Shown: piece after piece, positions 2,639 to 32,058 of the stretch
How the letters are laid out: the number at the start of each line of letters is the position of its first letter
How positions within the stretch are numbered: position 1 is the first letter of the stretch
Origin: Bacteroidales bacterium
GTDB taxonomy: Bacteria > Bacteroidota > Bacteroidia > Bacteroidales > VadinHA17
Direction: 5' to 3'
NCBI GenBank assembly: GCA_035360515.1
Contig: DAOSAY010000009.1
Span: 7,674 to 71,673 of the forward strand
DNA length: 64,000 nt
The notes under the pieces: model-generated
What the model saw: only the letters and a program-made list of their open reading frames with translations
Told to the model about the DNA's origin: nothing
Database searches by the model: none
Program-made: the position numbers and the translations under genes

Positions 2639-2646
2639 TAAATTTG
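2639..2646 (+). promoter_or_regulatory. Bacteroidota-type -7 promoter box (TAAATTTG) for the PqqD cassette
   Basis: Exact match to TAnnTTTG, 17 nt upstream of ATG 2664. The whole intergenic space is only 38-70 nt. Confidence 0.4.
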
Positions 2647-2663
2647 ACATATATTGAAATTTT

Positions 2664-2951
2664 ATGGAATTACTTAATCAGATACCTTCCCGTTCTTCAT
2701 CGGTTGTGACACGCAAGACTGGAAATGAATATATTATTGTCCCGGTAACAGACAATATTGCAGATATGGACAGTATATTCACCCTTAATGAAACAGGGGC
2801 TTTCATATGGGAACAGATTGACGGCGAAAAAAGTGTTGAAGAGATTATCCGGCTTGTCGTGGACGAATTTGAAATCGACAGAGATACTGCAACTAAAGAT
2901 GTACTGGGTTTTTTGAGCACGATGAAAGAATATCTGATCATCAAAATGTGA
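2664..2951 (+). CDS. PqqD-family protein (RiPP recognition element / peptide chaperone)
   Basis: 95 aa. The pattern YIIVPV...IFTLNETGAFIWEQIDGEKSVEEII..VVDEFEID...A.KDVLGFL..M matches the PqqD family consensus along its full length. Confidence 0.8.
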   Translation: MELLNQIPSRSSSVVTRKTGNEYIIVPVTDNIADMDSIFTLNETGAFIWEQIDGEKSVEEIIRLVVDEFEIDRDTATKDVLGFLSTMKEYLIIKM

Positions 2952-2998
2952 GAATTTAGATTTCTTCCCGGATTCTTATGTGACACAATAAATTGTAA

Positions 2999-3910
2999 AT
3001 GAGAGAATACTGCCTGAATATTGCAGGATATAATATAAAGGTAAAATCTGCACCTGGCGGACCCCTCCTTGGGCCTTCGGCAAGATTTGAAGGAAGTCGG
3101 GTGCAGAGTAATAAACATGATATTTTGATAAGAGTTCACACCGGACAATTTATTCTGCCTGCTGGAGCAGAAAGGGTTTTTCATGCTCCTTTTGTTGGGG
3201 AGAGAGAGGGAAAAACCTTTATAAGGAGTGAGGAGTTCTGGGATGTTTACCGTGATAAAGAGGGGGGGCTCTACATCTGTACCATATTCCCTCTTGAAGA
3301 GTCACAGGATAGAGGTACTCTTATTTTTTCGCTGCAGTCGGATGTCTGGGAGCTCTGGATTGAAGGTAAGGGAGGGAAGATTGATCCGCTGGCTTATCCG
3401 CTCGACGGACTTCTGCTTTATTATCTTACTGTAATAAGCAACGATATCATGATTCATGCTTCAGGAGTCGGTTTTGAAGATAGAGGCTATATTTTCAGCG
3501 GGGTGTCGGGGAAAGGAAAATCAACAATTGCACGTTTGTGGCATGATGCCGGCGCCAGGGTGATCCACGACGACAGACTTATAATCAGAAAGATGAATGG
3601 TGAGTACCGTTTCTATAATACTCCTGTATATAATAATGACAAACCTCTTGAAGCACCGCTCAGCGCAATATTTCTAATTGAGCACGGTATGGAAAATAGA
3701 ATTGAGCCATTGAGCGGTGTACAGGCAGTGAGCCAGCTGCTTGCAAACTGTATTCAGCACAACTGGGACAAGAATATAACTGGTAATCTTGTTAACGCTA
3801 TAACAGATATGTGCGAAAAAATCAGGGTTTTCCGGTTTTATTTCAAACCTGAACCTTCAGCAATTAATTTTATACTGGACCATGAGCATTCACAGAAAAC
3901 ATATAGATGA
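2999..3910 (+). CDS. HprK-related kinase (HPr kinase C-terminal-like P-loop domain) with an uncharacterised N-terminal half
   Basis: IMIHASGVGFEDRGYIFSGVSGKGKSTIARLW...VIHDDR matches the HprK C-terminal core (H-A-S, G-x-S-G-x-GKS-T, DD). The first ~150 aa show no motif I recognise. Confidence 0.7.
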   Translation: MREYCLNIAGYNIKVKSAPGGPLLGPSARFEGSRVQSNKHDILIRVHTGQFILPAGAERVFHAPFVGEREGKTFIRSEEFWDVYRDKEGGLYICTIFPLEESQDRGTLIFSLQSDVWELWIEGKGGKIDPLAYPLDGLLLYYLTVISNDIMIHASGVGFEDRGYIFSGVSGKGKSTIARLWHDAGARVIHDDRLIIRKMNGEYRFYNTPVYNNDKPLEAPLSAIFLIEHGMENRIEPLSGVQAVSQLLANCIQHNWDKNITGNLVNAITDMCEKIRVFRFYFKPEPSAINFILDHEHSQKTYR

Positions 3911-4331
3911 ATTAAGGAACATAAGCGTTTCGCTCCTTTCGGAGGGGAAGACAATAAGGATCAAAGCTCACGGATACAGCATGTATCCCACCATAAAACC
4001 TGGAATGGTAATCATGATTGAACCTATCAGATTAAAAGGTCTGCCTCAGAAAGGCGAAATTGTTGCAATAAATAAGGACAAGGGAATAGTGGTGCACCGG
4101 ATTGTTGAAATTATTGACGAGGGAGGAAAAAAGAAATATATTGCACGTGGCGACAGCAATCCTTTCCCTGATGCACCTGTAACAATCGATATGATACCCG
4201 GCAGAGTCACCGGGTTGGAAGGTTTTGCCCGGTTGCCTGCTGAATTTTCAAAGAAGCCAAATTATTTCTTTAACCGTTGGAGAGTGATTATGATACATAT
4301 TGCCGGCAGATTCAAGAATCTGAAAAAATAA
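3882..4331 (+). CDS. S24/S26-family peptidase, ER/archaeal (SipW-like, Ser/His) signal-peptidase type
   Basis: AHGYSMYPTIKPG gives the nucleophile Ser box. VVHRIV has His where bacterial LepB has Lys. ARGDSNPFPD resembles the SipW/Sec11 GDNN..D box. The ORF overlaps the upstream kinase gene by 29 nt. Confidence 0.65.
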   Translation: MSIHRKHIDELRNISVSLLSEGKTIRIKAHGYSMYPTIKPGMVIMIEPIRLKGLPQKGEIVAINKDKGIVVHRIVEIIDEGGKKKYIARGDSNPFPDAPVTIDMIPGRVTGLEGFARLPAEFSKKPNYFFNRWRVIMIHIAGRFKNLKK

Positions 4332-4355
4332 AATAATAAACTGACATCTGGCCTG

Positions 4356-6155
4356 ATGAAAAATTTAAGACTTCTTTTTGAGTCAGTAAAGCTTGTAAGA
4401 GAGAGTGCTCCGGGGTGGACTGCTGCAAATGTTGCAGTCTCTTTGCTCAGAAGTTTTATTCCACTTGTACTGCTGTTCCTCATAAGAAGCCTGATTGATA
4501 CGATAACCCAGGGTGTTTCATCAGGCGGAGAGGTATCTACTGCCCGAATTGTCTATTCAATTACAGCTGTTATAGTTGTATTTTTGATTGATGAGATGTC
4601 GTCAGAAATAGGGAATTATATAAGGAAAAAGCAGTCGTACCGTCTTGAGGAATACATGTATAAGCTTTTGCATTCAAAAGCCACAGCTCTGGATCTGATT
4701 AATTTCGAAAATCCTTCTTATTTTGATAAATTGTCGAGGGCAGTCAGAGAAGCTACATGGCGACCGAATAACATACTCAACAACTTCGTTGCTCTGTTCA
4801 GGGGGATTATTTCACTTATTCTAATGGCCAGCCTTCTCTTTACTTTGAACTGGTGGATAGCCCTGCTGCTTGTAGTAGTAAATATTCCAGGCATATGGAT
4901 GAGGCTACATTATGCTTCAGTTCTTTATTACTTTAGAAAGGAACTAACGCCCGAGGAGAGGAAAGCAGGATATTTCAACTGGTTGCTAACAGGAGACCGG
5001 CCATCGAGGGAAATAAGGCTATTTGGACTCGGTGATTATTTTATCTCTCATTTCAAAGAGTCGTTCAGACAATATAAAGAAAAAGAAATAGACATTTTAC
5101 GCAAGAGAACTGCTATCGAAACAGTTTCAGGCGTAATTAAGGCATCAGCACTTTTTATCGTGCTTTATGTTATTGCACGTCAGACGATAAGCGGGGAAAT
5201 TACGCTCGGAAATATGGCAATGCTCATACTGGCTTTCAGACAGGGGTTGATATATATAAGAGATATCCTGAGTTCGGTAGCGGGTCTTTATGAAGATTCA
5301 TTGTTTACCGGTGACATCTTTGAATTTTTGATGCTGAAAGAAAAAATAAAAGAAGATGAGCCGGTTTCTGAAGTAACTCCGCTTAAAAAGGAAATAAGAT
5401 TTGAAAATGTAACTTTTACATATCCCGGTAATAATTCTCCGGCGCTGAAAGATGTCAATCTGACACTAAAGAAGGGGGAGATTGTTGCGCTTGTTGGTTC
5501 GAATGGCTCCGGTAAAAGTACTCTGGTGCGAATACTTTGCAGACTCTACGACCCTGATAGTGGGGCTGTATTTTTTGACGGAAAAAATATAAGGAATTTT
5601 AAGCCGGAGGAATACAGAAAACAGTTTTCGGTACTTTTTCAGGATTTCATGCTGTACAATTTGAGCGCGGGGGAGAACATTTTACTTGGAAACATAGAAG
5701 CAGGGAGGCAGGAGGAAAGGATGAAGCTTGCTGCAATGTCGGCAGGTATACACTCATTGATTGAATCACTGCCCGGAGGTTATGATACACAGATTGGACC
5801 TCTGTTTGACGAGAGCCGTGAATTGAGCTGGGGTGAATGGCAGAAGATTGCTCTGGCCCGGACCATTTATCGTGATGCATCAGTGATGATACTCGATGAG
5901 CCTTCGAGTGCTATTGATTCGGAATCGGAATATGAAATTTTCAGCCGTTTCAGAGAAATAGTCAAAGGGCAGACCGTGCTGCTTATAAGCCACCGCTTCA
6001 CCAGTGTCAGACTAGCCGACAGGGTAGTTGTCCTGGAAGGCGGCAGAATAGCAGAAAATGGAACACACACTGAATTGATGATGAAAAAGGGATTGTATTA
6101 TAATATGTATACAAGGCAGAAAAATATGCTAGGGGATGGGGAACAGACTTCTTGA
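4356..6155 (+). CDS. ABC exporter, fused permease and ATPase half-transporter (MsbA/McjD-like architecture)
   Basis: N-terminal multi-TM region followed by an NBD with Walker A GSNGSGKST, a variant signature LSWGEWQ and Walker B VMILDEPSS. Confidence 0.9.
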   Translation: MKNLRLLFESVKLVRESAPGWTAANVAVSLLRSFIPLVLLFLIRSLIDTITQGVSSGGEVSTARIVYSITAVIVVFLIDEMSSEIGNYIRKKQSYRLEEYMYKLLHSKATALDLINFENPSYFDKLSRAVREATWRPNNILNNFVALFRGIISLILMASLLFTLNWWIALLLVVVNIPGIWMRLHYASVLYYFRKELTPEERKAGYFNWLLTGDRPSREIRLFGLGDYFISHFKESFRQYKEKEIDILRKRTAIETVSGVIKASALFIVLYVIARQTISGEITLGNMAMLILAFRQGLIYIRDILSSVAGLYEDSLFTGDIFEFLMLKEKIKEDEPVSEVTPLKKEIRFENVTFTYPGNNSPALKDVNLTLKKGEIVALVGSNGSGKSTLVRILCRLYDPDSGAVFFDGKNIRNFKPEEYRKQFSVLFQDFMLYNLSAGENILLGNIEAGRQEERMKLAAMSAGIHSLIESLPGGYDTQIGPLFDESRELSWGEWQKIALARTIYRDASVMILDEPSSAIDSESEYEIFSRFREIVKGQTVLLISHRFTSVRLADRVVVLEGGRIAENGTHTELMMKKGLYYNMYTRQKNMLGDGEQTS

Positions 6156-7311
6156 AATAAGGGATGAGGAAATATTGCTCATAGGTCTTTGCCGCCTTTC
6201 ATTTGATGAGAAACTTCGTGGCAGAATTAGTGAACTTGTTAGATTAACGAGTGACTGGGATTATTTCACGAATCTTGCTATGGAGCATGGAATAGCTGCA
6301 CTTGTGTGGCACAATCTTGAAAAGCTTGAACTGTTGAACTATCTTCCTGAAAAGAATGCCTCTGTGCTCCATTCTTCACTTCTGTTAAGCGTTACCAGAA
6401 ATGCCTTTCATCTGACTGGAGCTGAAGAAGTAATATCTTTGCTTAACAGGGCAGGTATAAAAGTTGTTCTTCTTAAAGGTCTTGCCCTTGAACTGACTTT
6501 ATACGGAAACTCAGGCCTGCGCCAGATGACTGATATAGACCTGCTGATAAGCAGGCGCGATTTCCTGAAAGCAAGAGATATTCTTCTGCATAACGGCTAT
6601 GATTCGTTGCCTGTAAAATCGGGTTTTCATAAACCTATAATGGAATGGACGGGAAAACATCTCCCTACACTTATGAAAAATGGCCTCTCGGTTGATATCC
6701 ACCTTGAGCTTTTCCCGGGTAAGAAGAATAATTTGACCTCAAAAGTAATTGAGACGGCAAGGGAGATAAGACTCGAACGGGAAACAGCTTATGTCCCGGA
6801 CCCTGAGCTTTTCTTCCTTTATCTCGTAAGGCATCTTTATTTTCACGAGCTGAACGACGAATCACAACTCAGGCTTTATGCGGATCTTGTTTTGATGGCG
6901 GAAAAATATGGGAGTGAGATATTCAGGTATAAGCTTCTTGAGGATGCAAAAGAAGCAGGTTTGACAAAAATTCTTGCATGGAAGCTTGAGCCTTTAAGAG
7001 ATTTATGGGGTCTTGAATTTCCCGATTGGCTGAATGAATTTACAAGCAGGAGGTTCAATCCTGATTCTATAAACAGATTTATTTTCTTTTTAAAAAGTCC
7101 GAAAGGAAATAAACCTGTTAATCCCGGGAAGGTATACCGGAGGATGATACGTGACATTCCGGGTATACACCGCAAGATTCTGTTTGTTTTAGGTGACATC
7201 TTTCCTTCTCTGACTTTCATGAAGGTCAGATATGGTGTAAATAATACACTTAAAGCATTGCTTTATTATCCCCTTCGTGTTGGTAAGTTATTCAGGCTTA
7301 TAAGTAAGTAG
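6136..7311 (+). CDS. Uncharacterised nucleotidyltransferase-family protein (NTP_transf_5 / PF14907-like)
   Basis: LLKGLAL...YGNSGLRQMTDIDLLISRRDFLKARDILLHNGY fits the family pattern as I recall it. The ORF overlaps the ABC gene by 20 nt. Confidence 0.6.
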   Translation: MGNRLLEIRDEEILLIGLCRLSFDEKLRGRISELVRLTSDWDYFTNLAMEHGIAALVWHNLEKLELLNYLPEKNASVLHSSLLLSVTRNAFHLTGAEEVISLLNRAGIKVVLLKGLALELTLYGNSGLRQMTDIDLLISRRDFLKARDILLHNGYDSLPVKSGFHKPIMEWTGKHLPTLMKNGLSVDIHLELFPGKKNNLTSKVIETAREIRLERETAYVPDPELFFLYLVRHLYFHELNDESQLRLYADLVLMAEKYGSEIFRYKLLEDAKEAGLTKILAWKLEPLRDLWGLEFPDWLNEFTSRRFNPDSINRFIFFLKSPKGNKPVNPGKVYRRMIRDIPGIHRKILFVLGDIFPSLTFMKVRYGVNNTLKALLYYPLRVGKLFRLISK

Positions 7312-7315: not shown

Positions 7316-8191
7316 TTACCTGCCCAGTTTTCTGGCTATTGCTTTAATATGTTCGGGTGTTGTGCCGCAGCAGCCACCGATTATGTTAACTCCAATGCTT
7401 ACCAATTCTGGTACGAATGATGACATAATTTCGGGTGATTCGGGAAAGATTGTCTTGCCATCAATAAGTTGTGGCACACCCGCATTAGGCTGGATGATGA
7501 GAGGGACTTCGCGGTCGGCTTCCCTTATAGCACGTGCCACACCTGTAAGCACTTCCGTGCCATTTCCGCAGTTTGAGCCGATTATATCTGCACCTGCCTC
7601 TCGGAGTATTCTTATCATATCGGCAGGGGTAACGCCCATGATTGTATAATATGTTCCATCTGGTGCCGGGTTGAAGGTCATGGTAGCTATTACTGTGCAG
7701 TGGGTATTTTCTTTTGCGGCCTTTACAGCGATAGCAGCTTCTTCGGCATCGCTCATCGTTTCGATTATTATGATATCGGCTCCCCCTTTTTCGAGTGCGG
7801 TTGCCTGTTCGCTGAAGGCTTCATACAGTTCATCGGCAGTGATATCACCTGTCATAAGTATTTTTCCTGTAGGTCCTATTGAACCGGCAACGTGCCGATC
7901 TGGTCCGGCTGCTTCGCGCGAAATTGATGCAGCAGTTTCATTTATTAAAGATGCTTTATCGTCCAACCCGTACTGTGAGAGTTTTATTCTGCTTCCTCCA
8001 AAACTGTTTGTTTCAATTATGTCTGCTCCTGCCTCGATATAACTGCGGGCAATGTCTAACACATCATCCCGTCTCGTAAGATTCCATAATTCCGGGCATT
8101 CCCCGGGCTGGAGCCCCTTCTGTTGGAGCAATGTGCCCCATGCACCGTCGCACAACAGAACGCGGGTTTTTATTTCATCAAGAATATTCAT
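7316..8191 (-). CDS. Homocysteine S-methyltransferase family protein (stand-alone Hcy-binding domain)
   Basis: LLCDGAWGT at the N-terminus, IGSNCG, and a C-terminal IIGGCCGTTPEHI zinc/homocysteine-binding Cys pair. Confidence 0.8.
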   Translation of the reverse strand: MNILDEIKTRVLLCDGAWGTLLQQKGLQPGECPELWNLTRRDDVLDIARSYIEAGADIIETNSFGGSRIKLSQYGLDDKASLINETAASISREAAGPDRHVAGSIGPTGKILMTGDITADELYEAFSEQATALEKGGADIIIIETMSDAEEAAIAVKAAKENTHCTVIATMTFNPAPDGTYYTIMGVTPADMIRILREAGADIIGSNCGNGTEVLTGVARAIREADREVPLIIQPNAGVPQLIDGKTIFPESPEIMSSFVPELVSIGVNIIGGCCGTTPEHIKAIARKLGR

Positions 8192-8225: not shown

Positions 8226-9572
8226 TTACCTGATCTTAAATTCTTCCTTGATTTTATCTACGTAGTCAAGTTTTTCCCATGCAAAGAACTTGACAGTTTT
8301 GCGATAAATTTTTTTGCCATTGTTATTTACAATAGCCGGTTTACATCCGGGCACCTTGTAATAAACTTCAACTTCTGCAGTATATGGTTCCCGCCCGAAA
8401 TGTCCATATGCTGCTGTGGGGAAAAAGACAGGATCTTTCAAACCGAACCTTTCGACAATGGCGTAGGGACGAAGGTCGAAGAGTTTTTGTATTCTCCTGG
8501 CAATCTCACCGTCGGTGAGTATGTTACCCTTTGCATTTTTCACTTTTGCTGTACCATAGGTGTTGACGTAAAGTCCAACAGGCTCAGCAATGCCTATTGC
8601 ATAGGCAACCTGGATCAATACTTTGTCGCACACACCTGCGGCAACCATATTTTTTGCGATGTGTCTTGCTGCGTAAGCTGCTGAACGGTCGACCTTCGAT
8701 GAATCTTTACCTGAGAATGCACCGCCGCCATGCGCTCCATGCCCTCCGTATGTGTCGACAATAATTTTACGTCCTGTGAGGCCTGTATCGCCGTGAGGTC
8801 CACCTATAATGAATTTTCCTGTGGGGTTTACATAAAGTTTGAAGTCGTCCCTGAAAAGCTTGCTTACCCTGTCAGGCAACTGCTTTTTAACCCTCGGGAT
8901 TAATATATTAAGAATATCATTTTTGATTTGAGTCTGCATTGCCTTTTCAGCTTCTTTCACAGCCTCTTTTGATTTATTCTTTGGCAGAACAAATTCATCG
9001 TGCTGGGTGCTTAATATTATTGTATCAATTCTGAGGGGTTCCCCGTTATCTTCATATTCAATTGTAACCTGCGATTTACTGTCGGGTCTCAGATAGGTCA
9101 TCACTTTACCCTCTTTTCTTATGGCTGCCAGTTCCTTCAGAAGCATGTGTGCCAGCTGGATACTCATTGGCATGAAATTATCCATTTCGCGGCATGCATA
9201 GCCGAACATCATACCCTGGTCGCCGGCACCCTGTTCTTCAGGCTTTTCTTTTACCACGCCCTGTCTGATATCGGGCGACTGTTCGTGTATGGTGGAGATT
9301 ACTCCGCAGGAATCACAATCGAACCGGTATTCGGCTTTGGTATAGCCTATTTCCCTTAAAACTCTTCTGACAGTTTCCTGAACATCAACCCATCCTTCAG
9401 TTCGTACTTCACCGCCACAAACAACCAGACCGGTAGTTACAAATGTTTCGCAGGCAACCTTTGAATCCGGGTCCCATTTTAAAAACTCATCAAGAAGGGC
9501 ATCGGATATCTGATCGGCTATTTTATCGGGATGACCCTCTGAAACTGATTCTGAAGTGAATAAATAACTCAT
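8226..9572 (-). CDS. metK: S-adenosylmethionine synthetase
   Basis: [31 protein letters not shown] and GGGAFSGKD motifs. Confidence 0.95.
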
Positions 9573-9744
9573 TTAGTATTTTACTTATTAAAGGTTAAAA
9601 CAAACAAGGGGAAGTTTTTGTTGACTGAAAAGCAAGGAATATTCGCATTTTAGCATTTTTTTCCGTGGTTGCAATCAGCACAAATCTTTCCACCATTTTT
9701 TGAAAGCACAAAGCAAATAAAAATATTTATGATTAGCAAAAAAA
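9573..9744 (-). promoter_or_regulatory. 172-nt metK leader; possible SAM-responsive RNA element (unverified)
   Basis: The leader is long for this compact genome. The minus-strand RNA contains GUGCUGAUUGCAACCACGGAAAAAAAUGCUAAAAUGC, loosely reminiscent of SAM-II/SAM-V A-rich ..GCUAAAA tails. I could not build a convincing fold by hand. Confidence 0.2.
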
Positions 9745-10656
9745 TTATGCAGTAAGCTTACGGAAAACTTCTTCAAGATTGCTCTCCTGCCTTATAAGAG
9801 AGAGTACGGTGAGGTTGTTATTTACTGCATATGAAAAGATATGAGGACGTATATCGGCTTTTGATTCAGCCTCAATTATAAACATATTGCTCCCTGTTCT
9901 GCTTACTGAAATTACACCGGGTATGCTGGCAAGTTCTTTTTCATCGGGTTGTCTGTCGAATTCAACTTTCACAGTCTGTATTGCCTGCATAATTCTTGAA
10001 TAAATCTTTTCTTTCGGGTCATCAGCTACTATTGTTCCCCTATCGATGATAATGATTCTGCTGCAGATAGCTTCAACTTCCTGCATTATATGTGTTGAAA
10101 TGAGCACTGTTTTTTCTTTTCCAGCTTCTTTAATGAGTGAGCGTATTTCTACTATCTGGTTGGGATCCAGTCCTGAAGTCGCTTCGTCGAGGATAAGTAT
10201 TTCAGGATTGTGGATAAGTGCATGGGCAAGTCCGACCCTTTGCCGGTAACCTTTCGACAATGAGCCTATCTTCTTGTTTTGTTCGGGAACAAGTCCGGTA
10301 AGTTCAATTATTTCATCGACGGCTTTCTGCCTCTCTTTGCCCGAAAGGTAGAATGAAGCAACAAAACCAAGATACTCTCTTACATACATCTCAGGATAAA
10401 GAGGGTTATTTTCGGGAAGATATCCGATTTTACGCCTGATTTCAGGATCGTCGCAGCCTGTTTCAATGCCGTTGAGCAGAACTCTGCCCGATGATGGTGG
10501 GATAAAGCCGGTGATAATTTTCATCATTGTTGACTTACCGGCTCCGTTAGGCCCCAGAAAACCTACTATCTCCCCTGTCTTTACCTCAAACGATAAGTTA
10601 TCAAGAGCTTTCTGGGTGCCGTAATATTTTGTAACCCTTTCAACTGTAATTGACAT
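9745..10656 (-). CDS. gldA: ABC transporter ATP-binding protein, GldA-like (gliding-associated ABC ATPase)
   Basis: Walker A GPNGAGKST, signature LSKGYRQRV, Walker B ILILDEATSGLD, and a ~300 aa ABC-2-type ATPase with a C-terminal accessory domain. The GldA assignment is from recollection of the family N-terminus and is not verified. Confidence 0.55.
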   Translation of the reverse strand: MSITVERVTKYYGTQKALDNLSFEVKTGEIVGFLGPNGAGKSTMMKIITGFIPPSSGRVLLNGIETGCDDPEIRRKIGYLPENNPLYPEMYVREYLGFVASFYLSGKERQKAVDEIIELTGLVPEQNKKIGSLSKGYRQRVGLAHALIHNPEILILDEATSGLDPNQIVEIRSLIKEAGKEKTVLISTHIMQEVEAICSRIIIIDRGTIVADDPKEKIYSRIMQAIQTVKVEFDRQPDEKELASIPGVISVSRTGSNMFIIEAESKADIRPHIFSYAVNNNLTVLSLIRQESNLEEVFRKLTA

Positions 10657-10745
10657 AAGACCCGATGGTTTTATCCTGAGCAGGGCTCTAAGATAGTTTT
10701 TAAGTATGTGTTATCAAAATGGTTTTTTATCATAGTTTTACTGAT

Positions 10746-10753
10746 TATTTTTG
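10746..10753 (+). promoter_or_regulatory. -7 promoter box (TATTTTTG) for the symporter gene
   Basis: Exact TAnnTTTG, 24 nt upstream of ATG 10778. Confidence 0.4.
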
Positions 10754-10777
10754 GATGTGTAAAAATTTTCAGAGGTT

Positions 10778-12433
10778 ATGGAAAATCAGCTTCAGATAGT
10801 AATTGTTCTCATTGCATATCTTTCCCTGCTGATTTTATGGGGTATTTATCAGGGTCGTAAGGTAAAGACGGGCAGTGATTATTCTATTGCCGGTCGCAAA
10901 CTTCCGGGCTGGGTGGCAGCTCTGTCGGAAAGGGCGACAGGTGAGTCATCGTGGGCACTTCTCGGGCTGCCTGGTGCTGCATATGCAACAGGACTGACGG
11001 AAATATGGACTGCAATTGGTTGTGTTGCTGGTATAATTACTGCCTGGGCGCTGCTGGCATGGAGACTTAGAGATGAAGCTGAGAAATATAATGTCACGAC
11101 TTTCAGCGATTATCTTGCAGCCAAACATGGTGACACTGGCCAACTGTTGAGGGTGATCAGCAGTTTAACGATAATTTTCTTTTTCTTTTTTTATGTGGGC
11201 GCCCAGTTTCTTGGAGGAGGAAAGACACTGCATACTCTTTTCGGAATAGAACCAGGATTGGGGATGCTTATTACGGCTTTGATTATCATCCCCTACACAA
11301 TATATGGTGGTTTCAGAAGTGTGGTCTATACTGATGTTATCCAGGCACTTCTGATGATTACAGCACTGGTTATAGCTCCGGTGGCTGGAATAATTTATAT
11401 TTCGAACCATCCGGAACTTTATGCCTCAGGGATAGGTGAAGCTCTAAGAAAATCGGGTGAATCATATACTTCTCTGACAGGTGTTGCAAAAGGATTTGGT
11501 GCTGGATTGCTTATTACAGGCGGCTTCAGCTGGTTTTTCGGATACCTCGGAGGATTGCCGCAACTGACAATGAGGTTTATGGCAATCCGCAACAGGGAAC
11601 AGGCAAAAAAGGGAAGAAATGTTGGTATTGTCTGGACTATTGTAGCTTACACGGGAGCATTAATGATAGGATGGATTGGTATTGCTATTTTCGGTCCCGC
11701 TGGCCTTGGTGATCCTGAATATGTGATGCCCAGCGTTATTCTTAAATTGTTCCCTCCTGTAATAGCAGCTATTCTTATTACAGGTGCCATAGCTGCAATG
11801 ATTTCAACTGCCGATTCACTACTTATTCTTTCGGCAACTGAACTTTCCGGAAGCCTTCTGAAAAAAGGAGAAAAACACCAGGACACATCACCAGCGGTGC
11901 TGAGAAAGCACCGGCTGATAACAGGAATAATAGCAGTTATTGCGCTTTTGCTCTCATATGTTTCTCCTTCAAAAATTATCTTTACTCTGGTAAGTTATGT
12001 GTGGGCAGGAATCGGATGCACTTTTTCGGTAGTTATTCTGCTTACGCTTTTCTGGAAAAGATTCCATGGGAAGGCAGCTGTTGCTACAATTGTTACCGGA
12101 ATACTTTTTACAATATTCTGGGTTAGTGGTGGGTTTGAACAGCATTACAGGGTTACGTCAGAGAAAGCTGATTTTCTTGCCAGTCAGAATATAATAAGTA
12201 ACCATGAGAAAGAGCAATTGCTTGTTCTGGAAGGCAGGAAGTTCGTCAATTCTGCCCGCCTGGCAGATAAAATAAGAGAACAAACAGGCTGGAGCAGCGA
12301 AGAAAAGAAAATTGCTGTTGTTAGTTCGGCTTTTGCGATAAAAAGTGTTCCTGCACGGCTAACGACATTTATTGCATGCCTGGTTGCTGCAGTAATTTCT
12401 GTTCTGCTGATGCCTCAACGTAAGGATAAGTAA
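10778..12433 (+). CDS. Sodium:solute symporter family (SSF) transporter
   Basis: Multi-TM protein. GRKLPGWVAALSERATGESSWALLGLPG is typical of the SSF N-terminal region. An unusual hydrophilic stretch precedes the last TM. Confidence 0.85.
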   Translation: MENQLQIVIVLIAYLSLLILWGIYQGRKVKTGSDYSIAGRKLPGWVAALSERATGESSWALLGLPGAAYATGLTEIWTAIGCVAGIITAWALLAWRLRDEAEKYNVTTFSDYLAAKHGDTGQLLRVISSLTIIFFFFFYVGAQFLGGGKTLHTLFGIEPGLGMLITALIIIPYTIYGGFRSVVYTDVIQALLMITALVIAPVAGIIYISNHPELYASGIGEALRKSGESYTSLTGVAKGFGAGLLITGGFSWFFGYLGGLPQLTMRFMAIRNREQAKKGRNVGIVWTIVAYTGALMIGWIGIAIFGPAGLGDPEYVMPSVILKLFPPVIAAILITGAIAAMISTADSLLILSATELSGSLLKKGEKHQDTSPAVLRKHRLITGIIAVIALLLSYVSPSKIIFTLVSYVWAGIGCTFSVVILLTLFWKRFHGKAAVATIVTGILFTIFWVSGGFEQHYRVTSEKADFLASQNIISNHEKEQLLVLEGRKFVNSARLADKIREQTGWSSEEKKIAVVSSAFAIKSVPARLTTFIACLVAAVISVLLMPQRKDK

Positions 12434-12434
12434 C

Positions 12435-13304
12435 TCAGTCTGACCAGCCTCCCATAAACTGGGAGCTCTTTGCATATGATGCCCTCGGGTTAACGCAAAT
12501 TACCGGTATCTTTGAACTATTTGCAATAATATACTGCTCTGAGGCCCCAAGCATGTAATCGGTAAAGGTGATATTTTTAGTCGTTACTATCAATATCAGG
12601 TCGGCATTTATTTTCTGCGCAAAATCAATCGTCTGCTGAGCAAAATCACCTTTCGGCAGGTCGTGAATTTCATATTCTATATTGTTCTGAATCAAGAATT
12701 TTATAGCAAAGTTGAGATTGATATTTGTCTTCTTTATCAGCATCTTATCGGTAGGGGTGGTTTTGATTATATGGATTTTTGAATCGAAGTATTTCCCCAT
12801 GAAGATTGCCATTTTAATCTTTTCCTTATTCTCCGACCTGAAATCCATCGGACAAACAATATTATGGTATCTTTCCCAGTCGCGCGGGGGATCCTGAACA
12901 ACAATAAAAGGCACTTTTGATTTGACAATAACTTTCAAAGCCCAGCTTCCGGTAAGTTTTTGCATCCCTTTAATCCCATGGGTGCCCATAACCACAAGGC
13001 TTACATCGCGTTTTTCTGTATCATTTACGAAAGCGCCAATGGATTTGAAAATGGTTCCCTTCTCAATATGAGAGGTAATGGGCACATTGTATTTTTTGCT
13101 GTTTTCTTCAGCTATATGCTTGAGACTTTCACTTTTAGCCTTCTCTTCGGCTGGCTTGATTTTGGGATCCACAATGTGAAGAAGACATATCTGGTTTGAA
13201 ACCATCCGGCTGATCTTCACAGCATGAGCCAGTGCATGTTCAGCAACATGCGTAAAATCCCATGGCACAACAATAAGCTTCTGATTTTGTTCCATAGTGT
13301 TCAT
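12435..13304 (-). CDS. Universal stress protein, tandem Usp domains
   Basis: Two Usp-like halves, with VVMGTHG...GS in the first and a second alpha/beta half ending PVICV. Confidence 0.75.
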   Translation of the reverse strand: MNTMEQNQKLIVVPWDFTHVAEHALAHAVKISRMVSNQICLLHIVDPKIKPAEEKAKSESLKHIAEENSKKYNVPITSHIEKGTIFKSIGAFVNDTEKRDVSLVVMGTHGIKGMQKLTGSWALKVIVKSKVPFIVVQDPPRDWERYHNIVCPMDFRSENKEKIKMAIFMGKYFDSKIHIIKTTPTDKMLIKKTNINLNFAIKFLIQNNIEYEIHDLPKGDFAQQTIDFAQKINADLILIVTTKNITFTDYMLGASEQYIIANSSKIPVICVNPRASYAKSSQFMGGWSD

Positions 13305-13512
13305 AATTAATTTTCTATCGTAAAATTACGCAGAAATCAGCAATTAATCAAACTTTACTGCAAGGGAGCTGAAAATAAATAATTCTGATTAATAAACAGA
13401 AGTAGTTTAAAAATATTTTGTAAACGCTGGAGAAAAAATATAAAATGCGGGTATTTGAGCAAAAATAATGCCAGTTTTGTTTCAAAAAGTGCAATTGTAT
13501 TTTCTGAATTGC

Positions 13513-13520
13513 TATTTTTG
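13513..13520 (+). promoter_or_regulatory. -7 promoter box (TATTTTTG) for asnS-rpoN
   Basis: Exact TAnnTTTG, 31 nt upstream of ATG 13552 and inside the over-long ORF call 13468. Confidence 0.4.
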
Positions 13521-13551
13521 GAGTCTGAATTTTAAGAGTTATATAAAACTG

Positions 13552-14940
13552 ATGAAAAGGACTAAGGTAAAAGAACTTCTTACAGGATTCCCGGTAGGTG
13601 AGGAAGTGCTTGTAAAAGGATGGGTAAGAACAAAAAGGAGCATTAAAGAAATAGTGTTTATTGCACTTAATGACGGCTCGACGATAAAAAATATTCAAAT
13701 TGTTGCCGAAGGAGTAAAATTCGGTGAGCAACTACTTAAGGATATTAATACCGGGGCTGCAATAGCTGTTAAGGGGAAGCTGGCAGAATCGAAAGGGAAA
13801 GAACAGCCTGTTGAAATTATAGCAGAAGAAATAGAGCTTTATGGTAAAGCTGACCCTGAAATATACCCTCTTCAGAAGAAGGGTCATTCTCTTGAGTTTC
13901 TCAGGGAAATAGCACACCTGCGTTTCAGAACAAATACTTTTGGTGCAATCTTCAGAATAAGGCATGCAATTGCGTTTGCAATTCATAAATATTTCAACGA
14001 CAAGGGTTTTTATTACCTGCATACACCAATAATTACAGGCAGTGACTGTGAAGGAGCCGGCGAGATGTTTCGTGTTACGACGTTAGATTTTGACAATATT
14101 CCAAGGAATCAGGAAGGTAAAGTCGATTTCAGCAAGGACTTTTTCGGGAAAGAAACAAATCTTACTGTATCCGGTCAGCTCGAAGGTGAACTTGGTGCAC
14201 TTGCACTGGGTGAAATATATACGTTTGGTCCAACGTTCAGAGCTGAAAATTCCAACACTCCGAGGCACCTTGCCGAGTTCTGGATGATTGAACCGGAAAT
14301 GGCTTTCTATGATATAAACGACAACATGGACCTGGCCGAGGATTTTCTTAAATACCTGACCAGGTATGCTCTTGAAAACTGCAGGGACGACCTCGAGTTT
14401 CTAAACAATATGTTTGATAAAGGCCTGATTGAACGCCTTGAATTTATTCTTAAAAACCCCTTTGAACGAATCACTTATACCAATGCTATCGAAATATTGA
14501 AAGCATCAGGACGTAAATGGGAGTTTCCGGTTGAGTGGGGTCGCGACCTTCAGGCAGAACATGAGAGATATCTGGTTGAAGAATACTTCAAAAGGCCTGT
14601 TATTATTACAGACTACCCAAAAGAAATCAAAGCCTTCTATATGAAACTGAATGACGACGGTAAAACCGTGAAGGCTATGGATGTTCTCTTCCCCGGTATA
14701 GGGGAGGTAATAGGAGGTTCACAGCGAGAGGAAGACTACAATAAATTACTCAATCGCATCAGAGAACTGAATATGAATGAGAAGGATCTGTGGTGGTATA
14801 TCGACACCAGAAGGTTTGGCTCAGCTCCACATAGCGGATTTGGTCTGGGGCTTGAGAGATTTCTTATTTTCCTTACTGGCATGACGAATATAAGAGATGT
14901 AATACCTTTCCCGAGAACACCAAGGAATGCTGAATTTTAA
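13552..14940 (+). CDS. asnS: Asparaginyl-tRNA synthetase
   Basis: Class II aaRS motifs [27 protein letters not shown] and GFGLGLERF. The start is set at [10 protein letters not shown]. Confidence 0.95.
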
Positions 14941-18201: not shown

Positions 18202-18984
18202 CTATTCTGAAACCTGTGTTTTTATCCCAAGTTTTTCGACCATGGCAGCTATTCTGTAAAGTTCCTTTGCTGGAACTTTCATTAGCATTCCTCCTTCAGG
18301 GGTGTCTCTTGCGATAGTGTAAATCATAACTTCTTCTGGCTTAATCCTTGCAATAGCCTTTAGCCATGCGTCGATTTCTTCAGGAGTGGTATTGTCAATC
18401 ACCCTGCCGTTGTATCTGCCTCTTAGAAAAAGTGTCTGTATAATTACATGTCCTTCAAACGAAGAAAGGTTTTCAATAAGTTCTTCTACCGAAATTTTTG
18501 CCCTGGGCTGGTTATGAATTCTTATTGTCTCGTCAATGGCTGAGTCGAGTTTCAGAATATTCATATCTACCTTGAGCAGTGCAGCCTTGATTGAGGGGTT
18601 GTTTATGGTTGAGGAGTTTGAAAGAACGGCGATTTTTGCTGATGGTGCGAGACTGTTTCTTAACTCAATAGTATCATCAATTATCAAAGGAAAATCGGGG
18701 TGTAGTGTTGGTTCACCGTTGCCTGCAAAGGTTATTACATCGGCCGACTCACCTTTTTCTTTCATTTCCAGAAGTCTGGATGAGAGAGCATGGTAGACAT
18801 CTGTGCGGGCAGGAAAGGAACTGCCGCCAGGTACAGGGTGCAATGTCCATCCGCACTCACAGTATATACAGTTAAATGAGCATATTTTCCTGTTGCAAGG
18901 AAGCAGATTTATTCCAAGCGATACGCCCAGACGTCGGCTTTTAACAGGCCCGAAGACTATCTTATCGAAAAGAAACGTGGCCAT
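18202..18984 (-). CDS. Radical SAM protein
   Basis: CSFNCIYCECG is a CxxxCxxC motif, preceded by GPVKSRRLGVSLGINL. The start is set at ATG 18984 (MATFLFDK) rather than TTG 19005. Confidence 0.75.
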   Translation of the reverse strand: MATFLFDKIVFGPVKSRRLGVSLGINLLPCNRKICSFNCIYCECGWTLHPVPGGSSFPARTDVYHALSSRLLEMKEKGESADVITFAGNGEPTLHPDFPLIIDDTIELRNSLAPSAKIAVLSNSSTINNPSIKAALLKVDMNILKLDSAIDETIRIHNQPRAKISVEELIENLSSFEGHVIIQTLFLRGRYNGRVIDNTTPEEIDAWLKAIARIKPEEVMIYTIARDTPEGGMLMKVPAKELYRIAAMVEKLGIKTQVSE

Positions 18985-19036
18985 TAACAGTGAGTTTCGG
19001 CGCAAAATTAATAATTATTGGTAACAGAAGCGTTTC

Positions 19037-27216: not shown

Positions 27217-29910
27217 GTGGCTAAAAGATTAATTCTGCTGCTGATTATTCTTTTTTCAGGCCTGGCTGCTTTATTCTTGTCCATACAGCGCGGAAGCCGT
27301 AATATACTCACAGATCCCTACAAGGCTATACCGGCTGATGTTTCAGTTTTAATTGAAACTGTAAATTTTCCCGGCTTATTAAATTCAGTCTCTGAGAATA
27401 ACAGTCTGTTTAAGGAAATAACAGGAATAAAAGAGTTTGAGAAGTTCGGAGAAAAATTCAATTTTCTACGGGCTATAATTAATAACAGTGAGATTACAAA
27501 AACCATAGAAAACCATAAAACCTTAGTCTCTTTTCATAAAGTTGACAGTCAGAATCTGGTTCCCCTGATGGTAATTACTGTTCCGAAATTTGTAAGGTTC
27601 TCTCATATCAGGGAATATCTGACACCCTTCAAGGATTTACACATTAATGTATTAAGAAAGGGGAAAGACAGATTTCTGGAAATTGTCAGAGAAAATCCTG
27701 AAAGAGAAAAATTTTATTTGAGTTTCGTTTCAGGTCTTGTACTTTGCAGTAAATCGGTTGCACTGATAGAGGAGGCTATCCTGCGAAGTAAATCCGGGTC
27801 AGATTTAAGAGATGACACGGGTCTTTCCAGGCTGCTTGCATCGGTCGGAAAAAATGAGGACAGAATATTCTTTATATTTAACAATCTGAAAGATGCCATT
27901 AAAGAGATAATTAAATCACCCGGTATAGCCGGGAAAATAACCAACCTGGCACAAGGAGCTGAAGGGGTGATAATTATTAATGACAATGGATACCTGTTCT
28001 CAGGTTATGCTGACACTAATGACAGTTCTGACATTCTCTTCAGTTATAAGTTACTTGAACCAGCGCAACTAAACATATTCAGGCAACTTCCTGCCAATAC
28101 AGTTTTATTTGAGACAAAAGTGATTTCAGGAAAAAGTGCCGGAATGAGAGGAGAAATGGGTAAGAGCAATCAACTATTGGACGAACTTCAACCTTATCTT
28201 AACGGAGAAACAACACGGGCCATAGTCGATTTAAGAAGGACAGGAATCACCACAAAAGCAACATTACTGGTTTACAGTCTGAAAAACAGAGACATAGCAG
28301 AAAGGATTATAAGTGACAGATTTACAATATGGTGTAATGAGAATAATCTGGATGAGAATAAATATATAAGGTATTTTCAGCCGGATGAACAGACCAGGAT
28401 TCCGGTTCTCTCCACCCCTTTTAAAGGCATTGGTGCATCCTTTTTTGGAGAATGCATGGTAAAAGTGGCTGATTCTCTGATGGCATTTTATGATAATTAC
28501 CTTGTGATGTCTGACAGAAAGGAAGCCATTGAAATGTTTATTTATGATAATCTTCTGCATAAGACAATTTCAACGAATCCCGATTTCATTGAACTCGAAT
28601 CAACCCTTCCGAGTAAAGCCTGCTACTTTTTTTACTGCGTTCCAGGTGCTGTTATAGAAAATCTTTCAGAATTTTTCAATGACAGGGTAAATAAGATTCT
28701 GAGTGAGAATAGCACACTTCTGAAGAAAATAAGATGTGTTGGTTATCAGTTTGTGCCGAGTAACGATATGATTTTCAATACCCTGTCTGTCAGATATGTT
28801 GAAAGTGTTGAGAGTGAACCAGGTGGAACAGAATGGGAGAGCAAGCTTGACGGAGCAGTAGTAACAAAACCTTTGTTCTTTACAAATCATAACACAGGTG
28901 CGAAGGAAATAGTGTTGCAGGACGACATGAACAACCTTTACCTTATAAATGCTGCAGGGAGAATATTGTGGAAAATACAACCAGGGGAACGTGTCAACGG
29001 AAACATTTACATAATTGATTTTTACAGGAATGGCAAGTTTCAGATTCTCTTTGCCGGAGTAAATAATCTTTATATTTTCGACAGAAACGGGAATCGTGTT
29101 GAAAGGTTTCCGGTCAAGCTGCGTGCTCCGGCATCAGGTCCCCCTGCACTTTTTGATTATGACAATAACCGTGATTACAGAATATTTATACCGGGAGAAG
29201 ACAAAATTATTTATGCATATGATAAATACGGAAATACCGTAAAAGGATGGAAACTATTCAAAACAAACGGTTTTGTTAGGTCAGAAATAAAGTTTTTCAG
29301 ACTTTCGGGAAAGGATTTTATTGTTGCAGCTGATGAGAACACAGTATATTTCCTTGATAGAACAGGAAATATCAGACTTAAACCTTCCCAGCCTGTGATA
29401 TGTGCCAGAGGTTCACAGATCAGATCAGATAGTTCAGGTGAACCATCATTCGTATTTTCAGCTCCCGATGGAACAGTACAGTTTATTTACCTCGACGGAA
29501 GAGTGAAAAAAGTTATACTGAACAAATTCAGTTCCGAACATTTCTTTGACTTTTTTGATATAGATGGTGACGGATTTGGTGAATTCATTTTCATTGACGG
29601 AAGTAAATTATTTCTATATGATCATGATATGACGGAAATATTTATTCGTGATTTCGGAACAATAAACATTAAAGGTCCGTATAATTTTGTGTTTTCTTCA
29701 GCTGACAGGAAAATAGGTATTTTTGATCCGGTTAAGAAAGAGGTTTTTCTGATAGATAAAAAAGGAAATGATGTTAAGGGTTTTCCTGTAAAAGGATGCT
29801 CGGAGTTTTCAATCGGTAGTTTGTCAAGAGGTGGTGATTATAATCTTATTGTAGGCGGGAACGACAATTTTCTTTATAATTATAAGTTAAATACATTGGG
29901 AAACTATTGA
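27217..29910 (+). CDS. Uncharacterised 897-aa protein: N-terminal membrane anchor plus C-terminal beta-propeller-like repeat region
   Basis: Hydrophobic N-terminus (LILLLIILFSGLAALFL). The C-terminal ~350 aa carry 7-8 repeats of the type LYIFDRNGNRVERFPVKL / IYAYDKYGNTVKGWKLF / VFLIDKKGNDVKGFPVKG. GTG start. Confidence 0.6.
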   Translation: MAKRLILLLIILFSGLAALFLSIQRGSRNILTDPYKAIPADVSVLIETVNFPGLLNSVSENNSLFKEITGIKEFEKFGEKFNFLRAIINNSEITKTIENHKTLVSFHKVDSQNLVPLMVITVPKFVRFSHIREYLTPFKDLHINVLRKGKDRFLEIVRENPEREKFYLSFVSGLVLCSKSVALIEEAILRSKSGSDLRDDTGLSRLLASVGKNEDRIFFIFNNLKDAIKEIIKSPGIAGKITNLAQGAEGVIIINDNGYLFSGYADTNDSSDILFSYKLLEPAQLNIFRQLPANTVLFETKVISGKSAGMRGEMGKSNQLLDELQPYLNGETTRAIVDLRRTGITTKATLLVYSLKNRDIAERIISDRFTIWCNENNLDENKYIRYFQPDEQTRIPVLSTPFKGIGASFFGECMVKVADSLMAFYDNYLVMSDRKEAIEMFIYDNLLHKTISTNPDFIELESTLPSKACYFFYCVPGAVIENLSEFFNDRVNKILSENSTLLKKIRCVGYQFVPSNDMIFNTLSVRYVESVESEPGGTEWESKLDGAVVTKPLFFTNHNTGAKEIVLQDDMNNLYLINAAGRILWKIQPGERVNGNIYIIDFYRNGKFQILFAGVNNLYIFDRNGNRVERFPVKLRAPASGPPALFDYDNNRDYRIFIPGEDKIIYAYDKYGNTVKGWKLFKTNGFVRSEIKFFRLSGKDFIVAADENTVYFLDRTGNIRLKPSQPVICARGSQIRSDSSGEPSFVFSAPDGTVQFIYLDGRVKKVILNKFSSEHFFDFFDIDGDGFGEFIFIDGSKLFLYDHDMTEIFIRDFGTINIKGPYNFVFSSADRKIGIFDPVKKEVFLIDKKGNDVKGFPVKGCSEFSIGSLSRGGDYNLIVGGNDNFLYNYKLNTLGNY

Positions 29911-29922
29911 TGATTATGATTT

Positions 29923-32046: not shown

Positions 32047-32058
32047 AAATATTCAAAC

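Follow-up and report, generated by a model that had tools for sequence, protein, structure and literature searches.

A Bacteroidales gene cassette with the enzyme set of linear polyphosphorylated peptide pathways and a precursor probably encoded in trans

Linear polyphosphorylated peptides (LPPs) are a recently defined family of peptides that are made by the ribosome and modified after translation (RiPPs) (Popov et al., Nat Commun 2026, PMC13381572). Their core machinery comprises the SipW-like peptidase LppS, the RiPP recognition element (RRE) LppB, the HprK-like kinase LppK, the NTP transferase LppN and the MsbA-like exporter LppD (PMC13381572). The clusters of Paenibacillus alginolyticus and other Bacillota have the gene order lppA-K-B-S-D-N (PMC13381572). 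Here we analyse a five-gene cassette at positions 2664–7311 of a 64,000-nucleotide stretch, referred to as the window, from a Bacteroidales bacterium of the VadinHA17 lineage (GenBank assembly GCA_035360515.1, contig DAOSAY010000009.1, positions 7,674–71,673 of the forward strand). The cassette encodes a PqqD-type RRE, a HprK-like kinase, an S26 peptidase, an ABC exporter and a PF14907 nucleotidyltransferase, and is probably a Bacteroidales version of LPP-type maturation and export machinery that acts on a precursor encoded in trans.

The biochemistry of the Bacillota pathway is known in outline. LPP precursors are 35–200 amino acids (aa) long and carry the leader YxxPxVLxHQxIxFETxxS (PMC13381572). 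LppK adds up to four phosphates to core Ser3, and LppS (S29/H68/D93) cleaves after T-1, solely with LppB present; mutants of the triad lose cleavage, and LppN was inactive in the heterologous host (PMC13381572). The family is said to be restricted to Bacillota, where 80 of 9173 genomes of Bacilli have it and gains and losses number at least 61, and the clusters of Bacilli sit in capsule loci (PMC13381572). For some Bacillota clusters a column of the supplement places the precursor elsewhere in the genome (PMC13381572). Supplementary Data 1 of the same study also holds two Bacteroidales peptidase and RRE pairs in cluster 8 of its sequence similarity network (SSN), one of which is a 747-aa peptidase–ABC fusion of Paludibacter propionicigenes (PMC13381572). 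The Bacteroidales architecture has been glimpsed in that supplement, where it is neither analysed nor counted as LPP. We found no description of it in RRE-Finder, in a 2025 RRE paper or in a paper on RiPP mining of Bacteroidales. Because the parts and the general mechanism have been known since May 2026, the cassette is not categorically new.

Leader recognition and the kinase

The first gene (2664–2951, + strand) encodes a 95-aa protein that is a PqqD domain (PF05402, E=2.8e-19). When a profile of its orthologues was compared with solved structures, the matches were PbaB1, the RRE of a paeninodin-like lasso peptide (9x90_B, 1.4e-7), TfuB1 (6jx3, 4.2e-5), TbiB1 (5v1u, 5.4e-5), the LPP-family RRE LppB (9x8z_B, 5e-4) and PqqD proper (3g2b, 8e-3). 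Matches to AlphaRep entries of the Protein Data Bank (PDB) were discarded as spurious repeat matches. In pairwise comparisons the protein matches an LppB-type RRE (E=3e-8), the RRE of the Butyrivibrio pNP243 cluster (E=1e-10) and the Paludibacter RRE of the LPP supplement (39% identity, E=2e-20).

Residues that read the leader in LppB are kept. N42 and D79, both invariant, and the near-invariant F83 align with N33, D70 and F74 of LppB, which in the crystal structure fix the kink at the leader Pro, hydrogen-bond the leader Tyr and sandwich the Pro (PMC13381572). In our reading of the profile alignment, the Trp-specific PbaB1 has Gln at the position of this Asp, and a Tyr-type YxxP leader is therefore predicted for the window RRE.

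The second gene (2999–3910, +) encodes a protein of 303 aa, for which the precomputed annotation is PF27840 'ScmC'. It had no match in our local copy of Pfam, Hpr_kinase_C (PF07475) included, and the NCBIfam models HprK_rel_A, HprK_rel_B and ScmC reached 23–30 bits, against cutoffs of 125–200, through the P-loop only. Among 30 aligned homologues, the most distant at 24% identity, H153, S170, G171, G173, K174 and D192 are invariant and S155, D191 and R193 near-invariant; the motifs read H153, G168-x-S-G-x-G-K174-S and D191-D192-R193. HPr kinase/phosphorylase has its His, P-loop and DD motifs in the same order. An AlphaFold model of the protein has a mean predicted local distance difference test score (pLDDT) of 95.5 and a predicted TM-score of 0.91. 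Foldseek places it with phosphoenolpyruvate carboxykinases (PEPCKs) and the HprK/P catalytic domain (E values of 3e-6 to 1e-4), and the TM-scores of 0.5–0.56, normalised on the HprK chains, refer to the HprK catalytic domain only. On this model the protein is a HprK/PEPCK-fold P-loop kinase with a beta-rich N-terminal domain of its own (residues 1–125). By sequence, neither the kinase nor the nucleotidyltransferase had a match in the PDB. The kinase matches that of Butyrivibrio pNP243 (E=4e-13), the lpp-type kinase with which it was compared.

An earlier note, made from the letters and a list of open reading frames (ORFs), had called this protein HPr-kinase-like. That assignment is not supported by the local Pfam and NCBIfam profiles and holds through the PF27840 match, the invariant motifs and the model with its PEPCK and HprK neighbours. 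The note had also mentioned, as a caveat, that pairs of PqqD and HprK-related proteins are catalogued as an HPr-rel-A system. The kinase reaches 23.5 bits with TIGR04352, whose cutoff is 200 bits; this places the cassette outside that system, and the caveat falls away.

A broader form of the same idea is that the cassette belongs to SynChlorMet or to HPr-rel-A, in which a PqqD and HprK-like pair works with radical S-adenosylmethionine (SAM) enzymes or other partners. The name of the precomputed family, ScmC, points in this direction, as do weak matches to ScmC, ScmD, HprK_rel_A and HprK_rel_B. These matches are far from their cutoffs, however, with 23–30 bits against 125–200 for the kinase (24.5 against 125 for ScmC itself) and 28.7 against 100 for ScmD, and no radical SAM/SPASM gene is adjacent to the cassette in the window or at any related locus that we read. 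We regard membership in either system as highly improbable.

Peptidase, exporter and nucleotidyltransferase

The third gene (3882–4331, +) encodes a 149-aa peptidase that passes TIGR02228, the model of archaeal-type signal peptidase I (62.5 bits, cutoff 51.85). It scores 40.8 against the 190 bits of the SipW equivalog model and has a weak match (1.2e-4) to TIGR02754, the model of the maturation protease of nickel superoxide dismutase (Ni-SOD). The motifs GYS33M, VVH72R and GD91SN are present together with D97, and the spacing of S33, H72 and D97 (39 and 25 residues) is that of S29, H68 and D93 in LppS. The protein matches the peptidase of a Paenibacillus LPP cluster (SSN cluster 1; E=7e-9) and that of Butyrivibrio pNP243 (E=4e-10). 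A transmembrane segment is lacking (maximum KD19 1.01), and because no hydrophobic segment is present we take the protein to be soluble. The lack of a membrane anchor, together with the kinase fusions seen in relatives (below), suggests that the peptidase is cytoplasmic and RRE-dependent rather than a signal peptidase of the Sec pathway.

The remaining two genes encode a pump and a transferase. The exporter (4356–6155, +; 599 aa) combines ABC_membrane (PF00664) and ABC_tran (PF00005) in a half-transporter of one transmembrane domain followed by one nucleotide-binding domain, with hydrophobic segments at residues 22–52, 59–83, 139–184 and 252–278, a Walker A motif at 381–388, LSWGE at 490 and ILDE at 512. 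Its best NCBIfam likeness is MsbA, under the cutoff, and the domain search found no C39 peptidase domain in it. The last gene (6136–7311, +) encodes a 391-aa protein of the NTP_transf_5 family (PF14907, E=4.7e-50) in which the motif G115...D133-x-D135 is present and which matches the enzyme of the Butyrivibrio pNP243 cluster (E=3e-6). The PqqD-type domain, the SipW/ER-type signal-peptidase homologue, the fused half-ABC exporter and the PF14907-type nucleotidyltransferase that the earlier note had named are all recovered by these profile matches, for the peptidase with its triad motifs.

Lack of a core maturase

Among the window ORFs to ~59.7 kb, with the last three (59708–63960) unscanned, there is neither an Asn-synthetase-like cyclase nor a transglutaminase-like protease. 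The sole radical SAM gene found (18202–19005, −) lies 11 kb from the cassette and is unlinked to it. The ORF survey bears out the earlier note, which had seen no lasso cyclase, leader protease or radical SAM enzyme in the cassette. Because cyclase and B2 protease are both missing, the product is expected to be linear.

We also considered a decayed lasso-peptide cluster, from which cyclase (C), B2 protease and precursor would have disappeared. Among solved structures the RRE is nearest to a lasso B1 protein, and clusters of the paeninodin and pseudomycoidin type count a HprK-like kinase, a PF14907 transferase and an ABC pump among their accessory genes. Such decay is nevertheless a very remote prospect, since no Asn-synthetase-like cyclase and no transglutaminase-like B2 protease was found in the roughly 90 related loci read, the S26 peptidase fills the role of the leader protease, even where it is fused to the kinase, and the same cyclase-less architecture is functional in Bacillota. 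The earlier note had named orthologous loci with a standard lasso cyclase and precursor as the finding that would turn the cassette into a decayed lasso cluster; the related loci that we looked at carry no such pair.

Operon structure, conservation and selection

The five genes form one operon-like unit with spacings, in gene order, of +47, −29, +24 and −20 nucleotides (nt), and all five ORFs are intact. On one side rnr is divergent (its product is RNase R by TIGR02063, 806 bits), and on the other a homocysteine S-methyltransferase gene (7316–8191, −) converges, 4 nt past the last stop of the cassette. A Bacteroidetes-type −7 box of the form TAnnTTTG, TAAATTTG (2639–2646, +), read directly from the sequence, is the promoter element of the cassette; of 83 related loci, 77 have a TAnnTTTG box 25–28 nt 5′ of the pqqD ATG. 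The rnr gene most likely starts at the ATG at 2592 (MAKRKK...), rather than at the TTG at 2625 of the longest ORF, so that the intergenic gap between rnr and pqqD is ~71 nt and not 38. Back to back with the cassette promoter, a second −7 box, TACCTTTG (2614–2607, −), was read in the same way; it is probably the promoter box of rnr, a function that we infer, and the TTTTTGC(A/G)AAG element around it is kept across related loci. A scan for sigma-70 promoters and terminators was uninformative for Bacteroidetes. The layout given in the earlier note (five same-strand genes, gaps of 47 and 24 nt, overlaps of 29 and 20 nt, rnr divergent, the methyltransferase gene convergent at 4 nt, a −7 box upstream) agrees exactly with the ORF coordinates and with the sequence; its figure of 38 nt upstream of pqqD is the one element that changes.

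Identical or near-identical copies of the cassette occur on Bacteroidales contigs of metagenome-assembled genomes (MAGs) from digester-type metagenomes, such as GCA_035418245.1 and GCA_035383145.1. More widely, the kinase has 1171 relatives among 90%-identity clusters and, among 50%-identity clusters, 8061 at E<=1e-3, 117 of them at E<=1e-30. A scan of one genome per GTDB species gave 302 related loci (numbered here with the prefix L). We counted synteny in the best 80 of these, which are almost all named Bacteroidales or Rikenellaceae MAGs with 46–97% identity, using as denominators the loci long enough to judge. Within this set rnr was in the flank at 68 of 68 loci (directly divergent at 59), pqqD was present at 76 of 76, the peptidase at 74 of 76 and the ABC exporter at 67 of 69. 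A full-length PF14907 gene was present at 36 of 60 loci; this enzyme is an optional part of the cassette. An HTH (helix-turn-helix) gene of 69 aa follows the cassette at 36 of 60. Co-conservation of the neighbourhood, a check that the earlier note had proposed, is thus seen beside rnr. Synteny across ~50% protein identity indicates long vertical inheritance, and retention of the core four genes in 67–76 of 69–76 species at 40–70% identity requires long-term purifying selection.

In a second large Bacteroidales clade, kinase and peptidase form one polypeptide of 430–560 aa, and a model of one such fusion has a pLDDT of 84.5. The cassette is divided here by housekeeping genes, with the ABC and PF14907 genes upstream of cysS-ispG-rnr and, on the other side, pqqD and the kinase/peptidase gene before metH-metF-metK. 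One possible fusion of PqqD, kinase and peptidase was also seen. The way in which the enzymes are fused argues for a single complex of kinase, peptidase and pump.

The ratio of non-synonymous to synonymous substitution rates (dN/dS), measured against one strain that is 98% identical, was 0.04 for rnr, 0.06 for the ABC exporter and 0.16 for the PF14907 transferase. For all five ORFs the ratio was below 1 or the changes were too few for an estimate. The values for kinase and peptidase are given below.

Searches for a precursor

The earlier note had seen no precursor in or beside the cassette, and ORF, motif and tblastn searches of the window were likewise negative. An N-terminal [YW]xxPx[LVIFA] motif was found in the window in shadow ORFs only, with no plausible gene of any size, and a motif search for ORFs with a [YW]xxP leader gave no plausible candidate in the 80 rnr-linked loci.

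Several positions within and next to the operon were considered and rejected as sites of a precursor. The gap between pqqD and the kinase, which spans 150–980 nt in relatives, holds a GxxExxY gene, its remnants or a DUF559-like ORF, and the gap between peptidase and ABC gene holds no conserved ORF. The downstream 69-aa ORF is HTH-like by sequence and is absent from the window, where the homocysteine methyltransferase gene abuts the operon instead. Clustering all small ORFs of the loci that it covered left pqqD and the HTH gene as the real conserved ones, the rest being shadow frames or a conserved non-coding region upstream of cysS. A 3.7-kb insert in two related loci (L018 and L072), considered as an extra maturase, resembles from its translations a restriction-modification system.

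These results give some weight to an orphaned or decaying cassette, that is, LPP-like machinery which has lost its substrate and regulator and makes no peptide product, its genes being in drift or taken over for another use. The precursor is missing from the window and from the syntenic loci, the HTH gene of 36 of 60 relatives is missing from the window, and 24 of 60 relatives lack the nucleotidyltransferase or have it truncated. Mobile genes (GxxExxY and the restriction-modification system) have inserted within the operon of relatives, kinase and peptidase show raised dN/dS (0.37 and 0.63), and a 1-nt indel changes the C-terminus of the peptidase between strains. We nevertheless think decay unlikely. 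The five ORFs are intact and their catalytic residues invariant, the core four genes and the promoter box are conserved across species as described above, and precursors in trans have precedents both in the LPP supplement and in Paludibacter-type genomes.

Candidate substrates in relatives

One relative with a more distant kinase homologue (32% identity; L098, GCA_037189345.1) carries candidate substrates in cis. Its cassette (9360–14185) has the order PqqD, kinase, S26 peptidase, MatE-like exporter, PF14907, YggS-like, LicD and cytidylyltransferase, and directly 5′ of it are three tandem ORFs, MNNESVKKTYTAPAIEEVVMDSDISLVMTS, MNNESQKKTYTAPAVEEVIMDSDISLVMTSI and MESINTKKAYTAPAVEEVIMDSDISLVMTSVG. 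Each of the three peptides bears YxxPx(I/V), and they share KKTYTAPA(I/V)EEV.MDSDISLVMTS. At this locus a MatE/flippase-like exporter replaces the ABC transporter, and genes for a YggS-like pyridoxal phosphate protein, a LicD phosphotransferase and a cytidylyltransferase follow the PF14907 gene; this hints at a decoration of the phosphopeptide derived from a CDP-alcohol. A further cis case is Butyrivibrio pNP243, which has a 57-aa ORF (MKKAYVKPEL...) between kinase and RRE.

A metagenome scan with the L098 peptides found 56-aa relatives, MQTTKKTYTAPAIEKILIDNEISLALESTPPDGPGEFGSSKVPEYFNNDPFKNNIG, in two copies that are separated by 8.7 kb and have no cassette within 10 kb. A profile search then gave 88 small proteins, mostly of 50–80 aa; where a source is named, it is Paludibacter or Microbacter. 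The consensus of these proteins is ..(K/R)xYxxPxIExIxLDNEISLALES-TPPxGPxE...PEYFNNDPFK, and the family matched none in Pfam or NCBIfam. By analogy with F(-3)E(-2)T(-1) of LppA, a plausible site of cleavage is the L-E-S that precedes TPP, the point at which the short L098 peptides stop. Genes of the family were located at L100 (78–248 and 8817–8987), L101 (10001–10183) and L103 (10001–10183). In three further contexts the peptides stand alone between genes for very large proteins with Por_Secre_tail, the C-terminal sorting domain of the type IX secretion system (T9SS), and genes for glycoside hydrolases are found in the vicinity. In the contexts read, the stand-alone peptide genes had no RRE, kinase or peptidase gene near them. 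Searches by tblastn with the L098 and Paludibacter-type peptides found nothing in the window or in the rnr-linked loci.

The position of these candidates beside T9SS cargo genes bears on another possibility, that the substrate is a full-size protein. Its N-terminus would be matured by RRE, kinase and peptidase, as the cytoplasmic S26 protease SodX matures Ni-SOD, and the ABC transporter would export the protein or a fragment of it. LPP precursors do reach 200 aa, the peptidase has its weak match (1.2e-4) to TIGR02754, the cassette is inherited vertically among housekeeping genes, and the candidate precursors of relatives adjoin very large T9SS cargo genes. Yet no plausible gene of any size in the window begins with [YW]xxPx[LVIFA], and the sole cis substrates in relatives are peptides of 30–57 aa. 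We know of no MsbA-type half transporter that exports folded proteins. We judge a protein substrate to be quite unlikely, somewhat more so than decay of the cassette.

Proposed pathway and its weighing

We favour, as the probable reading, an LPP-type pathway with its precursor in trans. In this pathway the 95-aa PqqD protein would bind the leader of the precursor through YxxPx(I/V/L) and present the peptide to kinase and peptidase. The HprK/PEPCK-fold kinase would transfer one or more phosphates to a Ser or Thr near the junction of leader and core, the soluble Ser33-His72-Asp97 peptidase would remove the leader in the cytoplasm, and the MsbA-like half-transporter would export the linear phosphopeptide. 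Where present, the PF14907 enzyme may decorate the phosphate, likely with a glycosyl or nucleotidyl-type group, as in pseudomycoidin. The precursor would be a small stand-alone gene elsewhere in the genome. The order of the steps is taken from LPP biochemistry, and the phospho-acceptor, the chemistry of the transferase and the presence of a precursor in this genome are inferred.

The central suggestion of the earlier note, a leader-guided module for phosphorylation or nucleotidylylation, cleavage and export, has gained a characterised counterpart in the homologous LPP set, with part-by-part matches and with the triad and the YxxP-reading residues kept. Its further proposal that the substrate is encoded in trans is in keeping with the lack of a cis precursor in the window and 80 loci, with the cis peptides of L098 and with the stand-alone genes of the Paludibacter type.

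Several observations count against an LPP-type pathway. Neither the 64-kb window nor the 80 rnr-linked loci yielded a plausible precursor ORF by ORF clustering, motif searches or tblastn, and graded versions of the Bacillota LPP leader motif had no match in the window or in 94 loci. The link between Paludibacter-type peptides and the cassette consists of one cis example (L098) and a shared motif, and the LPP supplement puts the RRE beside the Paludibacter fusion under 'RRE others' and gives its precursor as 'ND' (PMC13381572). The RRE profile is nearer to lasso B1 (PbaB1, 1.4e-7) than to LppB (5e-4). The dN/dS values of kinase and peptidase (0.37 and 0.63, from only 11 and 7 non-synonymous changes) could reflect relaxed constraint. 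Finally, the window locus is fixed and vertically inherited beside rnr, whereas LPP clusters in Bacilli are patchy and driven by horizontal gene transfer.

A bolder and rather doubtful proposal, which we put forward tentatively, is that the cassette beside rnr serves the whole Bacteroidales lineage as a phosphopeptide factory, passed on vertically, which matures a conserved YxxP family in trans (..YxxPxIExIxLDNEISLALES-TPPxGPxE..PEYFNNDPFK) whose genes are dispersed beside those for very large T9SS-secreted proteins and glycoside hydrolases. The product, its core conserved and not hypervariable, would be a physiological signal or cell-surface factor and not a bacteriocin. Conservation of the core and vertical inheritance speak for a role in physiology and not in warfare. 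If true, the proposal would provide the first functional context for LPP-type RiPPs, in a phylum said to be without them, and a physiological role would alter the view of this RiPP class.

An LPP-type assignment would extend a recently defined RiPP class to a major phylum, with the same machinery present as an ancient and stable chromosomal feature of hundreds of species of Bacteroidales, from digesters, sediments, peat and guts. It yields testable candidate substrates in the conserved family of 50–80-aa peptides with a YxxP leader, and cultivable relatives for genetics in Paludibacter propionicigenes and Prevotella sp. oral taxon 299.

Variant loci and other features

Insertions and gene replacements were seen at a number of related loci. 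A 129-aa GxxExxY-type (PD-(D/E)XK-like) gene lies between pqqD and the kinase at L019 (9543–9932), L024 (9301–9690), L026, L039, L044, L051 and L084, with remnants of it in the same gap at L007, L014, L016, L022, L037 and L073; at L086 the gap holds the DUF559-like ORF. The insert at L018 (11125–14183; same position at L072) separates kinase and peptidase of an otherwise intact cassette and, judged from translations alone, encodes an HTH protein, a 525-aa DNA methyltransferase-like protein and a 355-aa putative restriction enzyme. The separate 69-aa HTH protein that follows many cassettes (..LKSTGTPAELGLRFEISERSIKRL..; for example, L007 14569–14778 and L009 14417–14626) may regulate them. L097 (7717–9764) is a minimal locus of PqqD and kinase, after which a convergent gene for a Rce1-like (CPBP) intramembrane protease replaces the S26 peptidase. 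In Prevotella sp. oral taxon 299 F0039 (L096, 8569–10213) the order is kinase, S26 peptidase, PqqD, with no adjacent ABC or PF14907 gene; an ORF downstream is TonB-dependent receptor-like by its translation, in a part of the record that is unannotated.

A possible RNA element is a conserved non-coding stretch 5′ of cysS (L091 ~4380–4520, L092 ~4100–4250, L093 ~4370–4500), in which a G+C-rich hairpin (CCCCGGG...CCCGGGG) precedes GTTTTATGG; small-ORF clustering pointed to a similar conserved non-coding region at L001 (3610–3962). Small ORFs with double-glycine leaders (..ITINGG|YYWW.. and ..GTNGG|WVWP..) at L022 (10487–10651, −) and L078 (17867–18046, −) resemble precursors of class II bacteriocins; they lie 7–9 kb from the cassette and are probably unrelated to it.

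Elsewhere in the window, a SAM-II (long-loop) riboswitch (RF01726; 9640–9699, −; 56.2 bits, gathering score 44) lies directly 5′ of metK, the S-adenosylmethionine synthetase gene (8226–9572, −). Three consecutive large genes at 27217–33510 (+) encode products of 897 and 707 aa, for which no Pfam family is recorded, and then a 483-aa DUF5723 protein; a gene for a TonB-dependent receptor adjoins this block. The gliding and T9SS core genes gldK-L-M-N are at 36504–41335 (−). A block of nucleotide-sugar and polysaccharide genes occupies 54734–63960, at a distance (~47 kb) that gives no sign of linkage to the cassette.

Comparison with known systems

HprK/P and PEPCK share with the window kinase the P-loop kinase fold and the order His ... 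GxSGxGKS ... DD(R), and differ from it in that its N-terminal beta-rich domain (1–125) is unrelated to the N-domain of HprK and its gene stands in a peptide-maturation context, with no ptsH or phosphotransferase system context present. The peptidase belongs by sequence family and by its GYSM, HR and GDxN motifs with S26B enzymes (SipW, Sec11 and archaeal type I signal peptidases), from which it differs in being unanchored and, in relatives, fused to a cytoplasmic kinase. SynChlorMet (ScmC/ScmD/ScmE/ScmF; TIGR04248–04251) resembles the cassette in its pair of PqqD-like and ScmC-family HprK-like proteins and in a precursor that is not identified. It differs in that the window has no radical SAM/SPASM partners and has an S26 peptidase, an ABC exporter and a PF14907 enzyme instead.

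Lasso clusters of the paeninodin and pseudomycoidin type, from Firmicutes, have a B1 RRE, a HprK-like kinase that (poly)phosphorylates Ser, a PF14907 enzyme and an ABC exporter, and in pseudomycoidin the PF14907 nucleotidyltransferase adds hexose to the phosphate. In the window, by contrast, the S26 peptidase takes the role of the leader protease, and neither the window ORFs surveyed nor the related loci read contain a cyclase or B2 protease.

The closest described system is that of the LPPs. Window cassette and lpp clusters have the same five enzymes and no macrolactam cyclase, the YxxP-binding residues of the RRE and the spacing of the peptidase triad are shared, and kinase, RRE, peptidase and transferase of the window all match the Butyrivibrio lpp-type cluster pNP243, which has its precursor in cis. 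What is new against the described LPPs is the phylum, the mode of inheritance, the probably unlinked precursors, the leader consensus of candidate substrates, the fusions, the dispensable transferase and the variant loci. The cassette is from Bacteroidota rather than Bacillota, has the gene order B-K-S-D-N and contains no precursor within its operon; the Bacillota leader consensus is missing, and the candidates from Bacteroidota read YxxPxIExIxLDNEISLALES. Bacteroidales have kinase–peptidase and peptidase–ABC fusions, the nucleotidyltransferase is dispensable in ~40% of the relatives of the window, and variant loci carry a MatE-like exporter, LicD and a cytidylyltransferase.

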